Part shown: piece after piece, positions 20,611 to 37,413 of the stretch
Numbering within the stretch: position 1 is the stretch's first letter
Layout of the letters: every line of letters begins with the position of its first letter
Program-made: the position numbers and the translations under genes
Source: a virus
Virus record (IMG/VR): IMGVR_UViG_3300008255_000063
Coordinates: 1 to 38,262 of that record
DNA: 38,262 nucleotides
Strand: one strand, 5' to 3'
The notes under the pieces: generated by a model
What the model was told of the DNA's origin: nothing
The model's database searches: none
The model's input: only the letters and a program-made list of their open reading frames with translations

Positions 20611-20643
20611 AAAGGGAGGTGGAGTATTTGTCCACCTCCCTTT
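20611..20643 (-). terminator. Rho-independent (bidirectional-looking) terminator.
   Basis: aaaGGGAGGTGGAgtatttgTCCACCTCCCttt. A perfect 10-bp stem (20614..20623 with 20631..20640) is flanked by A and T runs. It lies just after the stop of ORF 20650..20844. Confidence 0.8.
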
Positions 20644-25510: not shown

Positions 25511-26226
25511 AGTATCTCCAGGATATCGCTCATAACTCGATCAGCTCCTCGTCGACCATTTTGAGTAAGCTGTCGGACCCAGGCTCCACGAGTAGGACTC
25601 CACTTGAAAGCGTTGCGACGGAGGATGGAGCGGATCTCATCCTCTGGCTTGCCCTCAAAGATAAAGTGGATCCGATTGTCCTCTTTATCCTCTCGCATGG
25701 TGTAGAGATCAGTCACTACATCCGGACGGAGTGTCATCGACTCTTTACTCTTGAGCTCATCGATGCGTCGCTCTACTCGCTTGATGTTGGCGTTTGAGTT
25801 GCTGAGCATCCAAGTAGGACAAGGCTTTTCTGTATTCTTTCGACGTGACTCAGCGTTCATTGAGAGCATGGTGTCGTGTTTCTTTTTAAGCTGACCGAGT
25901 TGGACTGTGAGCTTTAAGACAGCATCCGGATCATCTGAGCTGATACCACCAGTACCGACCGCCTCAGCTCGCTGTTGAAAGAGGCTCGCTTTCTTTGAGA
26001 GATCAAAGGATTTGCCGATCTTATTAACAGCTCGTCGTCGGTATGCGATGTCTGAGCGGTATGAGTAATGATCTGGCATAACCGGCTGGCCAAAAGGTAT
26101 AGCTTTTAGAGCTGTCATCCCCTCGTCGTGGACTCGAGTCGCCTCGATACTGAGAGTTTCAGACTTAGCGAGAAGTCGCTCCTTTTTGTTCTGTTGCTTT
26201 TGCTCGTAGATGTTTAATGTTTGCAT
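25507..26226 (-). CDS. DUF3560-like protein.
   Basis: 239-aa ORF with an N-terminal coiled coil. The FGQPVMPDHYSYRSDIAYRRR segment and a C-terminal IHFIFEGKPEDEIRSILRRNAFKWSPTRGAWVRQ segment resemble, from memory, the DUF3560 architecture. Its ATG is preceded by the TGGGATAC motif. Confidence 0.5.
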   Translation of the reverse strand: MQTLNIYEQKQQNKKERLLAKSETLSIEATRVHDEGMTALKAIPFGQPVMPDHYSYRSDIAYRRRAVNKIGKSFDLSKKASLFQQRAEAVGTGGISSDDPDAVLKLTVQLGQLKKKHDTMLSMNAESRRKNTEKPCPTWMLSNSNANIKRVERRIDELKSKESMTLRPDVVTDLYTMREDKEDNRIHFIFEGKPEDEIRSILRRNAFKWSPTRGAWVRQLTQNGRRGADRVMSDILEIL

Positions 26227-26260
26227 ATTGTGTATCCCAATTACTTTTAATCTTTATTTA

Positions 26261-26289
26261 AATATAGCACACACTCGCAACCGTTGCAA
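26261..26289 (-). promoter_or_regulatory. Sigma-70-like promoter overlapping a CAACCGTTGCA near-palindrome.
   Basis: The minus strand reads TTGCAA-cggttgcgagtgtgtgc-TATATT, with a 17-nt spacer. The -10 lies 35 nt upstream of ATG 26226. Confidence 0.6.
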
Positions 26290-26721: not shown

Positions 26722-26750
26722 ATCATAGCTTATTTATGCAACCGTTGCAA
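26722..26750 (-). promoter_or_regulatory. Sigma-70-like promoter overlapping a CAACCGTTGCA near-palindrome.
   Basis: The minus strand reads TTGCAA-cggttgcataaataagc-TATGAT, with a 17-nt spacer. The -10 lies 33 nt upstream of ATG 26689. Confidence 0.6.
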
Positions 26751-27831: not shown

Positions 27832-28050
27832 TTAGCCCTTATCGTCGTCAGCATCCGGTAATGCTGGCTGGATCGACTGTACTCCGAGCTCGATCATCTC
27901 CTTGAGATTTTCGACAACCTCCTGGATCTTACTAGGATCCTCTCCGTGTACGAGCTCCACCTTAATCTCTAAGGTGTGGATCGTCTCATTGTTGTCTGTG
28001 ACCTTGCTCTTGGCATTTACGCCTTTGAGTATTCCGTTTAGTCTGACCAT
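27832..28050 (-). CDS. Hypothetical protein.
   Basis: Start taken at ATG 28050 (MVRLNGILKG...), giving 72 aa. It overlaps the upstream stop by 13 nt. The track start at 28071 is also possible. Confidence 0.55.
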   Translation of the reverse strand: MVRLNGILKGVNAKSKVTDNNETIHTLEIKVELVHGEDPSKIQEVVENLKEMIELGVQSIQPALPDADDDKG

Positions 28051-28286
28051 GTAACCGCTTTGACAGCCCACATCTGAGCTGACTGTGCCTCAGTGATAGC
28101 GACAGAGCAGAGTCTTTTTACTTCCGGAGATTCTGACTTCTTACGCATATCATCAAGACGATCGATCACTTTGGCATAGGCTGTTTTGAGGATAAATACT
28201 TCCTCATTTTGACCAGGATTAAAAGCGAGTCCTACCGCTTTCTCACCAAAAGTCAGCTCCCTATCCCTTTTTGTATTTCCATCCAT
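28038..28286 (-). CDS. Small helical protein and candidate anti-defence sponge (Acb2/Tad1-hairpin-like; unverified).
   Basis: 82-aa ORF with VGLAFNPGQNEEVFILKTAYAKVIDRL followed by RLCSVAITEAQSAQMWAVKAVT. From memory, this FNP(S/G)...A(I/L)T..E.A.MWAVKA signature belongs to a widespread small phage family. Confidence 0.6.
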   Translation of the reverse strand: MDGNTKRDRELTFGEKAVGLAFNPGQNEEVFILKTAYAKVIDRLDDMRKKSESPEVKRLCSVAITEAQSAQMWAVKAVTWSD

Positions 28287-29334: not shown

Positions 29335-29613
29335 CTACTTGGTTTTATATTCTGGAACATCCAACACGAGAGATGCTCTCATGTCGTTACGCTTTCCAAC
29401 TCCGGCTAGTAATGCTCGGAGAGACTTGATTGTCGTCCCTCCTTTCCCTATCAGTGATCCAGCATCAATGTCGGACGGCTTTACTGTAAACAGTACGCCT
29501 CGTGCATCAATACTAGGACGGACTGAGAGTTTCTCCGGCTCGTCGAGTAGAGGCTTGATAGTTGATACTATCCAGTCTCGTACGAGCTCGATCTTTCGTC
29601 TCTGATCTTCCAT
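29335..29613 (-). CDS. KH-domain RNA-binding protein (YlqC/UPF0109-like).
   Basis: Start taken at ATG 29613 (MEDQRRKIELVRDWIVSTIKPLLDEPEKLSV...), giving 92 aa. The GxxG loop in SLIGKGGTTIKSLRALL and the overall length and layout match the small bacterial KH proteins. The 169-aa track version reads through a terminator and promoter region from a GTG. Confidence 0.75.
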   Translation of the reverse strand: MEDQRRKIELVRDWIVSTIKPLLDEPEKLSVRPSIDARGVLFTVKPSDIDAGSLIGKGGTTIKSLRALLAGVGKRNDMRASLVLDVPEYKTK

Positions 29614-29644
29614 AGCGATTAAGTTAAATAATAAAGCTGACAGC

Positions 29645-29674
29645 AAAAAGGCCCTCAGCCGAGGAGCCCTTTTA
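29645..29674 (-). terminator. Terminator-like hairpin in the leader of the early operon (attenuator candidate).
   Basis: The minus strand reads GGCTCCTC-ggct-GAGGGCC-TTTTT. The stem is 7 bp with one bulged A (50..56 with 61..68). It is flanked by aaaaa on one side and tttt on the other, and lies 32 nt upstream of the KH ATG. Confidence 0.55.
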
Positions 29675-29780
29675 CTATACCAGCATATGCTCTCTCTCCA
29701 CAGAGAGCAAAAAATGTACCAGATACGGCCAACGTAAGAGTCATGTTCAAACTCAAAACATTTTTTGTAAAAAATTGCAT
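29655..29780 (-). CDS. Leader peptide / small hydrophobic ORF (41 aa) ending inside the attenuator hairpin.
   Basis: My codon-by-codon translation reads MQFFTKNVLSLNMTLTLAVSGTFFALCGERAYAGIVKGLLG. The ATG at 29780 lies 3 nt after a TGGGATAC motif. The stop TGA (29655..29657) spans the loop/3'-arm junction of hairpin 29650..29668. Confidence 0.45.
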   Translation of the reverse strand: MQFFTKNVLSLNMTLTLAVSGTFFALCGERAYAGIVKGLLG

Positions 29781-29821
29781 ACCGTATCCCATACCCCAAC
29801 AGTATATACCCAGCTCTATAC

Positions 29822-29876
29822 ACAACGGTTGCACTTATCCCCACTTTTTGTTAATGTAGTAATGCAACCGTTGCAG
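29822..29876. promoter_or_regulatory. Divergent control region with two oppositely oriented copies of the CAACCGTTG near-palindrome.
   Basis: ACAACGGTTGCA lies at 29822..29833 and TGCAACCGTTGCAG at 29863..29876, with centres 42 bp apart. The minus-strand reading of the second is CTGCAA-N17-TAACAA. A possible plus-strand promoter is TTGCAC (29829..29834)-N17-TAATGT (29852..29857). Confidence 0.5.
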
Positions 29877-29928
29877 ATAGTGTATACTAGAGCTTGGAGG
29901 TAAACATTAAAAACCTAACCTCCAAACT

Positions 29929-30513
29929 ATGAAATCTGATAAACATAAAGTAGCAACGATCATTTTAATCGTTAAAGTTCTGACCTTATTACTAGCTATA
30001 AGCCTTGATGGTGGCGATCCAGTACACTACGTAGCCTCTCCGGAGATCTACACGTTTACACAACACGCTGAGGCTTCAACCGAGGCGACCATGTCTGATG
30101 AGGAGCTCTGTGGACTGGATGCTATCGTTTGCGAAAATGAGGAGCCGGTAGAGAAAGCCTTAAAAGAGATCCCTCACAAGACAGCTAAGACGGCTGAGTT
30201 GATCAAGTACCTATACGACTATGCTGAGGGTACTGATGTAAATCCAGAAATTGTCTCACGTACGATTTATTGTGAGTCTATGTGGTACAACATCAAATCT
30301 GGTTACTTCAATGAGCAAGGTATCCAGGAGGAGTCTTATGGCCTCTCTCAAATCCACTTACCAAACCACCCTCACATTACTAAAGAACAGGCTTTGGACC
30401 CTTACTTTGCTCTCCGGTTTATTGTCGATCGATGGCACGATGTCAAATGGTACGGCTACGATCGAGAGCGAGAAGTATGCACCAACTCAATCAAAGGCTA
30501 CTGGATCGATTAA
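29929..30513 (+). CDS. Membrane-anchored lytic transglycosylase (SLT-like).
   Basis: 194-aa ORF with an N-terminal TM segment (VATIILIVKVLTLLLAISL). The segment YCESMWYNIKSGYFNEQGIQEESYGLSQIH matches the SLT catalytic ES ... GL(M/S)QI pattern. Confidence 0.7.
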   Translation: MKSDKHKVATIILIVKVLTLLLAISLDGGDPVHYVASPEIYTFTQHAEASTEATMSDEELCGLDAIVCENEEPVEKALKEIPHKTAKTAELIKYLYDYAEGTDVNPEIVSRTIYCESMWYNIKSGYFNEQGIQEESYGLSQIHLPNHPHITKEQALDPYFALRFIVDRWHDVKWYGYDREREVCTNSIKGYWID

Positions 30514-30536
30514 CAAAATCTAATGGGATACACACT

Positions 30537-31079
30537 ATGAAAAGTAAAAAAAACACTATACCGCTAAAGCTCAGAGATGAGTTATCTAAGGATCAAGAGT
30601 ACGAGTACTGCTGTATAACCGGCAAGCGGAGTACTCCGGAGGATCCTATTGAGTGGCATCATAACTTAAAGTTTGCTGGCTCAAACGTCCAGGAGCGATT
30701 TTGTATCTTGCCTATTCTACAGTCAATCCACTTTAAAGCCGATAACATCAAAGTCAGAGAGACGCTGGATCGAGCGATGATCTATCGTGATACCGAGAAT
30801 AAGCTCTTTGATCCAATGGGATATGGTAAAGCGGTAAACTGGAGACAGCGAGAGATCTACCTCAACTCTATACACGGACCATACACTCCTCCAGTACCGG
30901 AGCCAAAGTCAGCGACTCGTGCTCTACCGGAAAAGAAAGAGGGATCCGGAGTTGAGCTAACTAAGCAAGAGTGGGCCATTATCTACAGCGTAAAGCGGAA
31001 ATTGGAGGAGGCACACCCTGGCCACCCTTTCTCAGCTCGTGAGGTTTTGTCGCACGTTATACACAGTTTTGAGGACTAA
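30537..31079 (+). CDS. Hypothetical protein with an HNH/DUF968-like Cys/His motif.
   Basis: Start taken at ATG 30537 (MKSKKNTIPLK...), giving 180 aa. It is preceded by TGGGATACACACT. The motif is CCITGKRSTPEDPIEWHHNLKFAGSNVQERFCILPILQSIH. The nuclease assignment is weak. Confidence 0.6.
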   Translation: MKSKKNTIPLKLRDELSKDQEYEYCCITGKRSTPEDPIEWHHNLKFAGSNVQERFCILPILQSIHFKADNIKVRETLDRAMIYRDTENKLFDPMGYGKAVNWRQREIYLNSIHGPYTPPVPEPKSATRALPEKKEGSGVELTKQEWAIIYSVKRKLEEAHPGHPFSAREVLSHVIHSFED

Positions 31080-31392: not shown

Positions 31393-31436
31393 CTGTAGTT
31401 TCGTATTGGGATACACACTACCGTCGGTACTTACTT

Positions 31437-32469: not shown

Positions 32470-35400
32470 CTATAGTGTAGGTAATTGTGGGAGTTTTGGC
32501 AAGCTGTTTGCTGGGAGAGCTGGGAGCTGAGGGAGTTTTGGTACTGAGCTCTCTGGAGTCTCCTCATCCCCCTCAAAGAGTCCGTTATCGAACTGACCAA
32601 ACACTTTTGGAGAGATTGTTTTCTTGAGCTTAGTAATACCACGATTCTTACCCTCATCCTCTCCGGACTTGATGATATCCATCTTAGGGTTTAAGAAACC
32701 GTCCTCAAAAGAAACGATGTCAGTTAGACCCTTAATGATATCGGCTAGGAAAGCATTAAAGCGAGCCTGTGAGGTAAACAGGTTAGGATCCATCGCTCCG
32801 ACCATTGTGAGAGCATCCTGGTAGCCTTTAACGACTAATTGCTCAGCAAAGCTCCTGTCCTTTTTATCTTGTAGAGAGCGAGCGTAGCCACCGACCACGA
32901 GTGAGATAGTACCAGCCAATAGAGCTGATCGGAGGAGCTCTCTAGTTTCCTTACGCTTGAGTGTGGCCTTGAGTCCCTCTTTACGAGCGACGTTCTGGAC
33001 CGTCTTTAGGTTATCGATAGTTGTCGACATGATCGGGACCGCCCAGGTACGATACTGAGTAAAGACTTTTCCAAGTGCTGTCTTACCCATCACTGACTCA
33101 GCTCCCTCTACTACTCGGTAGCGACCCATCTCTTTACGGAGTTCTGCTAGACGTTTTGATGTGATGATACCTGTCTTAAACTCTTGCTTTGTAAGGGATC
33201 CTAGCAAGTGTTGAGCGTTAGCTGTACGTGCTCCCTCAGCAAACAAAGCAAACATTCCTGTCATAAGTTTATCTCCTGGATCACTAGCTTGGTTACGCAT
33301 TTTTGTCAGCGTACTCTCTCCGATGAAAGACTCATTCTGACGGAGGATCTCTTGTCCTCGCTTAGTGAGCATACGGCCAGATCCGAGTGACATCTTACGA
33401 GCTCCGAGGCCTATAAAGGTAGATGATTGCTCACCTAAGAAAGAGGCAACTCCGACCGGCACACTAAAGCCCAAGTCGATAATACGAGTAAGAGCTACAC
33501 CGGAGCGGAGTACCCAGTCGACACGACCTCCAGGCTTTACAATCGTCTCAGCTACACGTCCCTTTTTAGTGTTGAGCCACTTCTTTGTAAACTTTTTAAG
33601 GGATCGATCGAGCTCTAGGCCACGCTCAGAATACACTCGAGGCGATAACGCATGAGCATAGATATCAATCTTAGGGACCAGGCTGTCGAGTGCCACCTTA
33701 CGTTCAAAGGTAGTAAAGTAGATCTCTACAGCTTTAGCGACGTTCTGTGTCGGGACCATGCCTCCGGTACGTTGCATAGAGAATTGGAAAAACTTTTCCA
33801 GAGGGAGGATCTCTCCGGTATCGCCATCAAGGATATTGAGATAAGCCTCATCTTGTTTGTACTGATCAAAGCTCTCTTTAAATGCTTTGATAAGACCGTC
33901 GTCTTTCCAAGTTTCAAGGAAACCACGTCGGATATGAGTGATGTAATCCGATCGGTACTTTTTTAATACTTGCATCTGGACCAGGTAGTCTCGAGCTTGC
34001 TCGTATAGATTTTTAATATATTGGCCGGCTTCGATCTCCTCGGCTGTCATTTCATCAGCCAGTTTAGACTTACCAAGAGCATCAGACTCGAGCCACTGGA
34101 AAATCTTTTTATCTGTAGGGATAAACTTATCGAGGAAACCTCGCTTTGTAGACTTGCGAGCCTTACTCATCAATACATCAAGTCGCTCTCGGATCTTAAT
34201 CACGTTCTCTCCAGCCTCAATAAAGGCTCGATTCTTTTCAGTGACCATCACATCATAAAATGGATTCTGTCTAGCTAGAGCTGAGTCATATCGATACTCA
34301 TCCATTTCCTTGTAAGCGACGTTACCAATAGATCCAGGCTCGACTCCAGCATCCTTAGCCAGACTCTCAAGAGCCTCACGGATCGTCCGGATGTCTGCTA
34401 TGTCTGTATGTTTTACAGTTTGGATCTGTCGCTTGGTGAGAAACTCATCACCTAGTTTAAAGTTCTCAAGTACATCGATCATCTCGACGATTTGCTTTTC
34501 TGTCATCTGCTCCATGCTAGGGTAGCCCATCGCTTGAAACATATTTTCAGTCTTTTTAAAGTCACGCTCAAAGATGAGAGACTTGAGTTCTACACGACGC
34601 TCAATAGCTCTAAAGGTTGCCTCTCCCTCAATCTGGATTTTATCCATGTAGGCTTTCCACTGATCGTCGGTATAGAGACGAGGATCCTGGAAACGTGTTC
34701 GCTTGAGGATTCGATTCCACTCGTGCTGTGAGAAATGGAAAAAATCTCGGACGTTTGCGAGCTCTTTTTGTCGTGAAACACCCTCAGCCTTAATCTCAGC
34801 TTTGAGTGCCTCAAGGATTTTCTTAGTATCTCGGTAGTCTTGAGTACGGCTTTGGACCTCCTCGATCATCTCAGCTAGTCGCTCACGTTGTTTCACGTAT
34901 AACCTAAACTCCTCTCGAGCCATCTCTGTAGACTCAAAACCTAGATCTCCAGCGATCTCATCGCCTTGTGTAGCCCACTTTGATTTACCAATACCAGTTA
35001 CCTCTCCAAGAGAGCCGACATTTTCTCCGACTTTAGGAGCATACTTTGCTAGTTGCTTAGCTGGATTTGCATCGATGGCATCCTTAGCAAACTCTATCTC
35101 GAGTTTTTTATATTCCAACTCCTCTGCTTTCGACAAAGTAGTACCACCCTTTTTATCGAGTAGTGCTGTCCTGGCCTTTCGAGCGATCTCAGTAGGAGAG
35201 AGAGCTGTGGCATCATCGTCAGCTTGCTTAGCTATTTTTGCTTTAGTGGCCTTGTAGTACTCCTCAGCACTAGCAAATCCCTTGCTTTTTACAGTGGCCT
35301 CAAGAGCCTCACGAGTAATACCAGTCTTGTTAAAGAAATGGTTAAAGGATGTAGACTGAGCTACTTGATCCTGGAGTTTATTGTTTACCCTACGGCTTCG

Positions 35401-37413
35401 AGTATTTCCTCCATCCCCTCTCGAAACGCTTGCTGTCCTTTCTCGTACGCTGGACCGGATGTCGGAGTCGGGTTTTTTGGCCACGCTCTTTGTGGTCGCT
35501 TTTTCGGATCGGAGAGACTCCTCTCGTCGGGTTTTTGATTTGCGGATTTGTTTTTCAGTGAGTTTAGCATTTTCGTTTGTGCTTAAATACTTATAAAGAT
35601 TTTCCTTATTATACCTCAATTTGTCAACCGTTGCAATAATCTCATCCGGATCTGTAATAATCCTCATTCGATCAGTTCCGAGGTCGGCTTTGTTTCTTAC
35701 TAAGCGAGTATCTGAAAGATTTATTTTATAGCCATCATCTGCTAGTTTTTTTATAGTATTAACAAAGCCTACATGCTTATCTATAAACACTTTCAATGGT
35801 ACGTCTCTACCAGTTCGTATTGCTCTTGATTGAGCCCACTTCCAAGCTCTAGCTATGTCTGGCAAGATTGCATCAATTTCGATAGATTTACCAAACTCCT
35901 CTACCTGTTTTAGTTTAGCTATCGCACTATCGTAGTCTGCCATTACACCATCTACAATGATTCCTTTTACATCATCGTTAGTCTCTAGTTTTTTAAGGAC
36001 TGTTTCGCTTTTCCCAGATCCAGATCCACCGGCTAAAAACCGGACTGTATCATTCTTATCCTCCTTGAGAGCCTTAGCAAACGCATCCTTTGCAAGTTGT
36101 GAGAAAGTCTCGTGATCTTTAGGATCAGTCATACCGGCCACTTTTTTGAGAGCGTCCGGATCAATCACTATATTACCCTTGCCGTTATCAAAGACTTTTA
36201 GAGCGTCATCGACGGCCTTTACAGTATCTCCCTTTGTAACCGCCTCTTTAAAGGCCACAGGATCAACTTTAGGAGCGTCTGATACTACCTTTGATACTTC
36301 TGTCGCATCGGGACCTTTAACAGCGTCATCGAGGATTTTGGCTATGCTGAGCTCATTCTGTGACTGAGCTATCTTAGGAGCGATCTCCTCGGCCACCTCC
36401 TCGCTGATGCCTAGATTTTTAAGGACTGGAGTAATGTCTTTTACATCATCATAGTTTTTAAGTGTCGCTAAGATAGGACCTTTAGCGATTTTTGTAGTCC
36501 CAAAAAATATAGGAGCATCAAGGACAGCAAAAGCATCCTCGAGTAAGTTCGTGACTCGGAGTGCTGATTTCTCCTCTTTTGAAAGCTCGGCTCCGGTATC
36601 TGCCAGTTGATCTACGTTGTTACCCTCCTGGCCTGGAGCTTTAGGAACTGTTTTAACAGCATTGTTTTTTACGTCCTGGATAGCTTTATCAAGTAGCTCT
36701 CGCTCGGTTAAATCTGGAAAACTCTCGGCTAGTTTGTCGTAGCGAGTCATTACTTGCTCACCTACTTCGGCATCAGTAGGATCCATTTTCTTTTGGAAAC
36801 CCTCAAACAGAAAACCAAGTACTCCCTTTTCGACAATCGTCTGAGGGATAGAGCCTGGAGTGTAGAGACTATTGGATGGACCTTGTGGACCAGTACCAGT
36901 AAGAAACTTACCCACGAGTGGGATCTTACTTAATGACTGTCTGGCTTTTTGTACTAAATCCTCCTGGCCTTGTCCGAGTGTTACCCCTTGATCGATATCA
37001 GCTTGTGATTTTTGCTGATTGTATTGAGATTTTTCAGCGTCAGTAAGATCTGCAAAAGTCTTTGGCTTTTCAGTCGGAACTATTGGAGCCGGCTGTACGT
37101 TACTCGAGGGAGTGGATGTCTTAGTCTGGCTAGATGCTATAGCTGGAGTGGATGTAGGGATATCAATACCAAACTTTACGTTAGATGCCGGTTTACTCAT
37201 CAATCGCTCCTGGATTGAGGGACCAATAAAAGGTTTTAAATTGAGAGCTTTTCCGACGCTAGACTTTGACGTATTAGTATTCCCTCCTCGCTGAGATACC
37301 GGCACATAACCCCCACTAGTGGATTTCGTAGTGATGGTTGCTGGAGCCTTTGGAGATCCGGACTGTACGGCTTGCTCCGCTTTTTTCTTTCTCTCTGAGA
37401 CGGGTACATACAT
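32470..37413 (-). CDS. Giant virion protein (polyvalent / ejected-core or tape-measure-like) with an embedded zeta-toxin-like P-loop kinase domain.
   Basis: 1647-aa ORF. A Walker A motif, FLAGGSGSGKSE (AGGSGSGKS encoded at 36007..36033), sits in a ~170-aa zeta/AAA_33-like module at about aa 430-600. The middle is long and helical. The C-terminal third has hydrophobic helices (VALTRIIDLGFSVPVGVASFLG, LMTGMFALFAEGA, LLRSALLAGTISLVVGGYA). The C-terminus has a tandem PKLPQLP. Confidence 0.85.
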   Translation of the reverse strand: MYVPVSERKKKAEQAVQSGSPKAPATITTKSTSGGYVPVSQRGGNTNTSKSSVGKALNLKPFIGPSIQERLMSKPASNVKFGIDIPTSTPAIASSQTKTSTPSSNVQPAPIVPTEKPKTFADLTDAEKSQYNQQKSQADIDQGVTLGQGQEDLVQKARQSLSKIPLVGKFLTGTGPQGPSNSLYTPGSIPQTIVEKGVLGFLFEGFQKKMDPTDAEVGEQVMTRYDKLAESFPDLTERELLDKAIQDVKNNAVKTVPKAPGQEGNNVDQLADTGAELSKEEKSALRVTNLLEDAFAVLDAPIFFGTTKIAKGPILATLKNYDDVKDITPVLKNLGISEEVAEEIAPKIAQSQNELSIAKILDDAVKGPDATEVSKVVSDAPKVDPVAFKEAVTKGDTVKAVDDALKVFDNGKGNIVIDPDALKKVAGMTDPKDHETFSQLAKDAFAKALKEDKNDTVRFLAGGSGSGKSETVLKKLETNDDVKGIIVDGVMADYDSAIAKLKQVEEFGKSIEIDAILPDIARAWKWAQSRAIRTGRDVPLKVFIDKHVGFVNTIKKLADDGYKINLSDTRLVRNKADLGTDRMRIITDPDEIIATVDKLRYNKENLYKYLSTNENAKLTEKQIRKSKTRREESLRSEKATTKSVAKKPDSDIRSSVRERTASVSRGDGGNTRSRRVNNKLQDQVAQSTSFNHFFNKTGITREALEATVKSKGFASAEEYYKATKAKIAKQADDDATALSPTEIARKARTALLDKKGGTTLSKAEELEYKKLEIEFAKDAIDANPAKQLAKYAPKVGENVGSLGEVTGIGKSKWATQGDEIAGDLGFESTEMAREEFRLYVKQRERLAEMIEEVQSRTQDYRDTKKILEALKAEIKAEGVSRQKELANVRDFFHFSQHEWNRILKRTRFQDPRLYTDDQWKAYMDKIQIEGEATFRAIERRVELKSLIFERDFKKTENMFQAMGYPSMEQMTEKQIVEMIDVLENFKLGDEFLTKRQIQTVKHTDIADIRTIREALESLAKDAGVEPGSIGNVAYKEMDEYRYDSALARQNPFYDVMVTEKNRAFIEAGENVIKIRERLDVLMSKARKSTKRGFLDKFIPTDKKIFQWLESDALGKSKLADEMTAEEIEAGQYIKNLYEQARDYLVQMQVLKKYRSDYITHIRRGFLETWKDDGLIKAFKESFDQYKQDEAYLNILDGDTGEILPLEKFFQFSMQRTGGMVPTQNVAKAVEIYFTTFERKVALDSLVPKIDIYAHALSPRVYSERGLELDRSLKKFTKKWLNTKKGRVAETIVKPGGRVDWVLRSGVALTRIIDLGFSVPVGVASFLGEQSSTFIGLGARKMSLGSGRMLTKRGQEILRQNESFIGESTLTKMRNQASDPGDKLMTGMFALFAEGARTANAQHLLGSLTKQEFKTGIITSKRLAELRKEMGRYRVVEGAESVMGKTALGKVFTQYRTWAVPIMSTTIDNLKTVQNVARKEGLKATLKRKETRELLRSALLAGTISLVVGGYARSLQDKKDRSFAEQLVVKGYQDALTMVGAMDPNLFTSQARFNAFLADIIKGLTDIVSFEDGFLNPKMDIIKSGEDEGKNRGITKLKKTISPKVFGQFDNGLFEGDEETPESSVPKLPQLPALPANSLPKLPQLPTL
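35608..35636 (-). promoter_or_regulatory. Consensus sigma-70-like promoter plus CAACCGTTGCA motif inside the giant gene.
   Basis: The minus strand reads TTGCAA (35631..35636)-cggttgacaaattgagg-TATAAT (35608..35613), with a 17-nt spacer. The architecture matches the intergenic promoters at 26261..26289 and 26722..26750. Confidence 0.5.

Follow-up and report, generated by a model that had tools for sequence, protein, structure and literature searches.

The IMG/VR virus record IMGVR_UViG_3300008255_000063 is a stretch of 38,262 nucleotides, analysed here whole and called the window; it is a phage genome of ~38 kb in which nearly all genes lie on the minus strand. Its gene content includes a small-terminase-like gene, primase, exonuclease, methyltransferase, HNH, large terminase (terL), capsid, tail genes and endolysin. 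The sole divergent control region of the window, 29614..29928, lies between a gene for a KH-domain protein, which runs leftward from 29613, and a two-gene unit, which runs rightward from 29929. The subject here is the leader of the KH operon, 29614..29800. An earlier account made from the letters alone (the sequence-only reading) had proposed that a leader peptide and a terminator act at this place as an attenuator of the pyrBI kind. The sequence features that it listed are all found at the positions given. That proposal finds support in a corrected form, with another start codon, a shorter leader and an added conserved fold.

The product of the first gene after the leader is a KH protein, as the sequence-only reading had called it (92 amino acids, YlqC-like, loop IGKGG). 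The Pfam profile PF13083 (KhpA/KhpB KH) matches residues 15-82 of 92 with E 1.1e-12 and 48.1 bits, against a cut-off of 32.1, and is present in all 18 KH homologues, among which the loop G56-K-G-G59 is invariant or nearly so. An AlphaFold (AF2) model (pLDDT 91) has helices at residues 2-22, 48-55 and 57-75 and strands at 30-36, 39-45 and 80-84; this is the type II topology (alpha-beta-beta-alpha-alpha-beta), the GxxG loop lying between its two middle helices. The nearest solved structures by sequence are KhpA (7xqc) and then the KH domains of NusA, and Foldseek matches the model to the KH domain of uS3, KhpB and NusA. Proteins of the KhpA family bind RNA and form a heterodimer with KhpB/Jag. 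The likeness to KhpA (YlqC) and KhpB thus takes in the profile, the loop, the topology, a length of ~90 amino acids and the closest structure. The present protein differs in being encoded by a phage and in its low identity to cellular relatives in the alignments obtained (the best match in the cultured collection is 33%); it differs from KhpA also in context, as the first gene of a phage operon rather than a member of the rpsP-rimM-trmD neighbourhood.

In the phage collections searched, stand-alone KH proteins are indeed uncommon, as the same reading had supposed: a tblastn search of 50,697 phage records gave one weak match only, and PHROG holds no family for the protein. In a collection of 5.8 billion proteins it has 17 relatives. 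Seven of these (60-95% identity) come from contigs of 37-39 kb, or from short fragments, with the same gene order; a distant group (38-44% identity) comes from other phage contigs of 35-38 kb and is found without the present leader. In this distant group (L011-L014) the KH homologues lie downstream of ParB_N/N6_N4 methylase genes and adjoin a Cpn10 (GroES-like) gene, with a different conserved 5' region.

The conserved leader and its fold

The leader can be compared in nine distinct sequences: the window, L001, L002, L003 (=L004), L005, L006, L008, L009 (=L010) and L015. Identity of the KH protein across these relatives falls from 97% to 60%. The features, in the order in which RNA polymerase would meet them on the way to the KH gene, are as follows.

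29863..29875, no strand assigned: palindrome TGCAACCGTTGCA (TGCAAC-C-GTTGCA), operator-like, on the divergent gene's side and overlapping the -35 region; conserved in relatives
29821..29833, no strand assigned: imperfect repeat of the palindrome, with the conserved CTGTGGATAA ahead of it; recognised by conservation
29801..29808, minus strand: invariant -10-like box TATATACT (TATATA / TATACT; TATA(T)ACT); sequence conservation in nine sequences
29784..29793, minus strand: motif TATGGGATAC, invariant in nine sequences; the conserved AUG (29792..29790) lies within it, and it forms the core of the P1 5' arm
29782..29794, minus strand: P1 5' arm, GUAUGGGAUACGG; minimum free energy folds, covariance model, duplex energies
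29655..29792, minus strand: short open reading frame (mini-ORF) from the invariant AUG, 45 codons and TGA, in the frame of the earlier 41-residue ORF; frame open in relatives
29767..29774, minus strand: conserved unpaired UUUUUUAC, in two reading frames among relatives; alignment
29738..29754, minus strand: P2 hairpin, GAGUU, loop UGAACAU, GACUC; minimum free energy folds, one pair with a double change
29730..29740, minus strand: conserved CUCU(U)ACGUUG (short forms CUCUACGUUG, CUCUUACGUUG), in three reading frames among relatives; alignment
29716..29728, minus strand: P1 3' arm, CCGUAUCUGGUAC; duplex -16.3 kcal/mol, shuffled arms -5.4 +/- 2.1
29688..29709, minus strand: P3, 8-bp hairpin (29688..29695 with 29702..29709), specific to the clade of the window, L001 and L002, where it covaries
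29645..29674, minus strand: GC-rich hairpin and U5, like an intrinsic terminator, extended stem ~29641..29680; folds, duplex energies, covariation
29335..29613, minus strand: gene for the KhpA-like type II KH-domain protein, 92 amino acids, GxxG = GKGG; first gene after the leader

All nine sequences share the upstream part of this series: CTGTGGATAA with the palindrome; TATA(T)ACT 16-17 nt on, the same distance separating AACCGTT from the -10-like box in every case; and the invariant TATGGGAT(A/T) 8-10 nt further, so that the box stands 8-10 nt upstream of the invariant ATG. In eight of the nine (all but L006) there follow UUUUUUAC, P2, CUCU(U)ACGUUG, a segment able to pair with the TATGGGAUAC region, a strong hairpin ending in U-rich sequence, and then ~35 AT-rich nt before the KH ATG. 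L006 (1..171; KH protein 70% identical) is a natural deletion variant: P2, the P1 3' arm and the terminator are all absent, the promoter, TATGGGATA and TTTTTAC are retained, and a perfect TATAAT lies 15 nt before the KH ATG.

Transcription of the KH operon probably starts at ~29793-29800, a placement that follows from the conserved -10-like box. The promoter of the sequence-only reading (29848..29876), with a leader of ~230 nt, is not upheld, since no -10 is conserved there in relatives; a likelier element is the TATA(T)ACT box at 29801..29808, with which the leader measures ~180 nt. Neither passes a scan for the sigma-70 consensus. The operator copy of the same reading stands, at 29821..29833; the window has five copies of the palindrome core GCAACNGTTGC where 0.54 would be expected, and none of 100 shuffles reaches five.

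Two of the five copies belong to internal sigma-70-like promoters on the minus strand, at 26261..26289 (TTGCAA-N17-TATATT) and 26722..26750 (TTGCAA-N17-TATGAT), each with its -35, TTGCAA, inside a palindrome TTGCAAC(G/C)GTTGCA; equivalents in relatives read TTGCAA-N18-TATAAT (L020 4200, L021 3630). The palindrome-to-(-10) spacing at the KH promoter is 2-3 nt longer than at these internal promoters. The 5' untranslated regions (UTRs) behind the other promoters of the window measure ~26-34 nt, against ~180 nt for the KH leader.

A stretch of 251 nt that holds the leader folds with z = -4.2, and none of 200 shuffles folds as well. The central element is P1, a long-range helix in which the TATGGGAUAC region pairs with a segment ~65 nt downstream; independent minimum free energy folds find it in eight of eight sequences, and every P1 duplex is much more stable than duplexes of shuffled arms. 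A covariance model built from the four closest sequences recovers L015, L008 and L009 (E = 6e-8, 3e-6 and 3.5e-4 among them) and has no other convincing match in the window or across 93 kb of loci, hence no second copy of the element there. L005 scores 10 bits owing to an inserted hairpin and was handled manually. In the model-based alignment, which is fitted to the structure and so favours it somewhat, ~90% (89.7%) of P1 and P2 cells are paired, against 30-55% with slid partners; four pairs show double changes, a covariation score reached by 2 of 500 shuffles. (An alignment by MAFFT only, made for RNAalifold, misplaced the 3' arm in the distant lineages, and the covariance-model alignment was used instead.) G-U pairs make up about a fifth of the paired cells, and the covariance model gives the reverse strand 15 bits where the KH-sense strand has 95; the many wobbles and the poor reverse score mark the fold as specific to the KH-sense RNA. 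The 8-bp hairpin of the sequence-only reading, our P3, exists where that reading put it but is confined to the clade of the window, L001 and L002, being absent in L003, L005, L008, L009 and L015. With a helix that locks the start codon and two invariant unpaired motifs, all of which that reading had missed, the leader is a structured RNA and not just a peptide and terminator device.

The GC-rich hairpin with U5 is borne out more fully. Its duplex energy in the window is -18.8 kcal/mol, against -6.1 +/- 2.2 for shuffled arms. In all eight distinct homologues a stable hairpin of -19 to -29 kcal/mol stands at this position, and its stem has five unrelated sequences among them; compensatory double changes affect 7 of the 11 consensus pairs, so that the sequence varies by lineage and the pairing is kept. 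The window clade and L003 have a tail of U4-U5, and an A-tract upstream makes the hairpin region symmetric. The hairpin would on these grounds act as an intrinsic terminator.

No conserved pairing joins the arms of P1 to those of the terminator; some is found only in L009 and, marginally, in L008 and L005. Pairing of UUUUUUAC with the A-tract of the terminator is inconsistent across lineages, by inspection. A switch of the trp type was rejected, as the leader has no conserved antiterminator cross-pairing, no runs of control codons and no conserved peptide; a riboswitch was rejected as well, since P1 neither overlaps nor competes with the terminator and no known Rfam class is matched. As P1 and the terminator share no conserved pairing, a trans-acting agent must decide whether the terminator forms.

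Rfam gave no match for the whole window at gathering score, and none better than E ~1 for 29500-30000 at a permissive E-value; a scan of the window for tRNA and tmRNA was empty. DNA-pattern scans found only the contig already known among viral contigs, nothing among genome contigs, and four chance matches among metagenome contigs, none with a covariance-model match. The leader element is a new RNA motif of a general kind already known, terminator-based leader control, in the unusual setting of a small family of uncultured phages.

The leader frame and the proposed control of read-through

The invariant ATG at 29792 lies inside TATGGGAT, 12 nt upstream of the ATG at 29780 and in frame with it, and ~8 nt or less from the likely transcription start. 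From this AUG the frame is open for 24-52 codons in eight of eight sequences, from five lineages, despite indels that shift the frame. Its first stop falls between -7 and +54 nt as counted from where the terminator stem begins, that is, from 7 nt before the stem to just beyond it. In L006, which has lost the terminator, the frame from the AUG is only 8 codons long. Dinucleotide shuffles put the joint chance of an open frame in five lineages at 1.4e-4, and the other two frames (open in 4 of 16 cases) put it at ~3e-4 to 1e-3; both figures are optimistic, the open-to-terminator criterion having been set post hoc and the lineages sharing ancestry.

The peptide itself is not conserved. Indels shift UUUUUUAC into two frames and CUCUACGUUG into three, and beyond MGY the peptides are unrelated; it is the nucleotides and the openness of the frame that are kept, not the protein. 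No regulatory codons or codon runs occur in the mini-ORF peptide.

The 41-residue ORF of the sequence-only reading fares accordingly. It is present in the window at 29655..29780, 3 nt after TGGGATAC, but a start composed of TGGGATAC and then ATG is not conserved: ATG 29780 is AAG or absent in L002, L003, L005, L008, L009 and L015, six of the seven relatives that keep the leader. What does hold in all eight sequences is the frame from 29792, which ends in or at the terminator. Its stop, TGA 29655..29657, sits at the junction of the loop and the 3' arm, as had been claimed, but only in the window clade; in other lineages it falls 7 nt short of the stem, at the stem's 5' base, or past it. All the observed stop positions are compatible with a ribosome occluding the terminator stem.

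No Shine-Dalgarno (SD) sequence precedes the mini-ORF, and its start would need to be leaderless or near-leaderless. SD sequences are absent before every gene of the window; the upstream regions are AT-rich, frequently with TTTAATAA. SD-independent initiation is therefore the norm for this phage, and initiation without SD close to the 5' end, as ribosome coupling requires, is plausible in it.

A motif shared with other genes bears on the same question. TGGGATA(C), often as TAAT-TGGGATAC-AC, occurs at 26239, 22665, 20023 and 32453 on the minus strand and at 30524 and 31407 on the plus strand. It lies 2-6 nt before the starts at 26226 (primase), 22653, 20014 (terL) and (+)30537, and also near the endolysin start; the copy at (+)31407 follows a bidirectional terminator. 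Of the ten copies in the window, seven lie between genes on the sense strand; several copies are conserved in relatives. The 5' arm of P1 is itself one copy. The motif may have a part in translation, in RNA or DNA processing or in binding a protein, and its recurrence is the chief ground for caution in taking the invariance of TATGGGAT as that of a start codon alone.

One way to draw together the conserved and covarying P1, P2 and terminator and the invariant AUG with its open frame and the place where that frame stops is to suppose that 29614..29800 is an attenuation leader in which read-through is coupled to ribosomes on a near-leaderless mini-ORF; this is the interpretation we tentatively prefer. 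Transcription would begin a few nt 5' of AUG 29792, and ribosomes would load as on a leaderless or near-leaderless mRNA. The 45-codon frame, its peptide free to vary, would bring them up to or into the intrinsic terminator in every lineage; a ribosome keeping pace with the polymerase would cover the 5' arm of the terminator and so allow read-through into the KH gene. Should no ribosome arrive in time, the AUG would be locked in P1 once the 3' arm is made ~65 nt later; the terminator would then fold, and an RNA of ~150 nt would be released. P1 would thus serve as a lock, leaving ribosomes only a brief interval, as soon as the 5' end has emerged, in which to initiate.

Such coupling accounts for an AUG that does not vary, for a frame that stays open and stops where it does, and for the loss of that frame in L006. 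Against it stand several observations, besides the optimism of the chance figures given above. The start site is placed by the -10-like box only, and a good -35 at canonical spacing is absent. The context of AUG 29792 is G-rich, unlike the AT-rich regions before real genes. TGGGATA(C) precedes five other start codons, so the invariance of TATGGGAT may be unrelated to a role as start codon. The U-tract is short in L005, L008, L009 and L015 (U3, then AU-rich sequence). Lastly, the invariant unpaired UUUUUUAC and CUCU(U)ACGUUG suggest sequence-specific recognition, of which a pure ribosome mechanism has no need; they may be pause sites or a factor-binding site, and coupling alone does not explain them.

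These last motifs are better served by factor-dependent antitermination, an account that we regard as possible though less probable. P1-P2 and the unpaired motifs would then be a recognition or loading site in the nascent RNA, like lambda nut, HK022 put or conAn; the factor would be a host factor, RNA polymerase or the KH protein, the leader terminator and the later terminators of the ~36-kb operon would be passed, and the open frame would be incidental. Invariant single-stranded motifs set in a covarying scaffold, in different frames, are what such a site would present. CUCU(U)ACG resembles boxA (CGCUCUUA) over 5-7 nt, which is a lead only. An RNA-binding (KH) protein is the first gene in nine of nine loci with the leader, its fold also matches the KH domains of NusA, and a second strong terminator, at 20611..20643, marks the boundary of early and late genes, with counterparts in L020 and L021. 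The element begins a few nt from the probable transcription start, as does putL (PMC9378689), and processive antitermination by a bipartite RNA and protein at the head of a long operon has a precedent (conAn, PMC8191782). On the other side, an open frame in five lineages would have to be a coincidence (~1e-4 to 1e-3); distant KH homologues in other phages do without the leader; the RNA element is not repeated elsewhere in the window or the loci and has no Rfam match; and adjacency is the sole tie between the KH protein and the leader RNA. A bolder form of the same account, unlikely in our estimate, makes the leader RNA and the KH protein an antitermination module of a new type, in which P1-P2, with its UUUUUUAC and CUCUACGUUG loops, recruits the NusA-KH-like protein to the polymerase, which then resists the leader terminator and that of the early/late boundary. 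The KH protein might in that case recognise the TGGGATAC motifs as well, which stand 2-6 nt ahead of the start codons of primase, terL and endolysin, and one small RNA-binding protein would time the whole 38-kb genome.

That the leader is instead a stand-alone small RNA (sRNA) of ~150 nt, acting in trans, perhaps with the KH protein as chaperone, and that the KH operon is served by leaky read-through only, is a doubtful proposition, standing below antitermination yet a little above its bolder form. The architecture is that of a stable sRNA, with P1 closing the 5' end and the terminator stem at the 3' end; the TGGGATAC motif that immediately precedes several start codons has its complement in the 3' arm of P1; and KhpA and KhpB are described in the literature as sRNA-associated RNA-binding proteins. 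That complementarity amounts to ~7 bp in the window, however, and intramolecular P1 would outcompete it; the L006 variant does without most of the RNA; and the seven genes from the terminator to the palindrome promoter at ~26750 have no other evident promoter, so that read-through is needed in any case. Two further accounts strike us as very improbable. In the exact form given by the sequence-only reading, a 41-residue peptide is made from ATG 29780, TGGGATAC is its ribosome-binding signal and the stop at the junction is critical. The spacing is apt, as the ATG stands 3 nt after TGGGATAC in the window and L001, within the 2-6 nt seen before five other genes; yet this start is missing from six of seven leader-keeping relatives in which P1 and the terminator persist, and the stop ranges from -7 to +54 nt relative to the stem. 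Loss of the ORF start with persistence of the hairpin refutes this form on that reading's own terms. The other account, to which we give hardly any credence, takes the motifs as DNA sites for proteins and the folds as incidental. A divergent promoter region with operator-like palindromes is a natural place for such sites, and TGGGATA(C) recurs on the opposite strand at 31407, at a non-coding site. Three separate helices with compensatory changes and numerous strand-specific G-U pairs speak against it, as does the low covariance-model score of the reverse strand. We rank ribosome coupling before factor-dependent antitermination, and the latter before a stand-alone sRNA; the three are not mutually exclusive.

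Other genes and signals of the window

The KH operon also holds, at 28038..28286 on the minus strand, a gene for an 82-residue protein with an Acb2/Tad1 hairpin domain (PF24729, E 1.4e-9), a candidate anti-CBASS/anti-Thoeris sponge; the relative L009 carries a Tad2-like gene (L009 4429-4695). The strong terminator at 20611..20643 (minus strand) is an intergenic hairpin of 13 bp between the replication/methylase module and HNH-terL; its counterparts lie at 9945-9966 in L020, directly before terL, and at 7410-7435 in L021. For the HNH gene, a start at ATG ~20598 probably fits better than the annotated ATG 20646.

On the plus strand, the 5' UTR of the divergent gene forms a hairpin at 29891..29928, TTGGAGGT ... 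ACCTCCAA, which sequesters GGAGG ~30 nt before the ATG; it is kept, with a wobble change, in L002 and L003, and distant relatives keep GGAGG only. The second plus-strand gene, annotated at 30432..31079, probably starts at ATG 30537 (after TGGGATACACACT) rather than at 30432, which would make its product ~180 amino acids long, as in relatives. A 1647-residue ORF occupies 32470..37413 on the minus strand; its homologues in relatives match the Zeta-toxin-like Pfam family PF06414, and its product may be a virion or injected protein.

In the phage collection searched, the best identity of terL to any cultured phage is <=31%, so there is no close cultured relative; the terL family has more than 600 members. 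A nucleotide search of that collection gave only a weak 222-bp match to Enterobacter phage EcP1, elsewhere in the window. The endolysin profile, used in the hope of inferring the host, found no relative in 185,579 genomes.

Relation to known leader and antitermination systems

To our knowledge, phage timing by antitermination or attenuation is known from a handful of models only (lambda N and Q, HK022 put, P4 and a few others), and ribosome-coupled attenuators are essentially confined to cellular biosynthetic operons. A leader RNA with a near-leaderless mini-ORF and a terminator, gating an operon of KH and anti-defence (Acb2/Tad1-like) genes, would be a new regulatory RNA family and would give phage KH proteins a first functional context. 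The natural variants, namely the L006 deletion, the differing stop positions and the compensatory stems, make the proposed attenuator directly testable.

The attenuators of the trp, his and leu operons resemble the present leader in having a short ORF and a terminator in a long 5' UTR. The present leader differs in having no runs of regulatory codons and no conserved 2:3 antiterminator pairing, and its peptide is free to vary. Leader peptides have been noted in 5' UTRs of Corynebacterium (PMC3890552), and a released attenuator RNA can itself be an sRNA, as described for rnTrpL (PMC6614838).

With lambda N/nut, HK022 put and conAn the leader has in common a structured RNA right after the promoter of a very long operon with internal terminators, and its small RNA-binding (KH) protein, as first gene, holds the position of lambda N. 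putL, of ~70 nt, consists of two stems and starts at ~+3 (PMC9378689); conAn pairs an RNA with a protein (PMC8191782). Sequence and Rfam similarity to these systems are lacking, a KH domain takes the place of an arginine-rich peptide or ConAn1, and the first terminator precedes the protein gene; the likeness is positional and architectural.

The E. coli pyrBI leader, finally, shares with this one a frame leading into an intrinsic terminator that is placed after the promoter and before the first gene, a hairpin that a close-following ribosome would block, a U-rich tract upstream of the terminator, and independence of amino-acid control codons. The present leader, known from sequence alone, differs in its phage setting, in having no known link to UTP and in an AUG that lacks SD, lies ~8 nt or less from the probable start of transcription and is sequestered by a conserved long-range helix; it differs also in its two invariant unpaired motifs.

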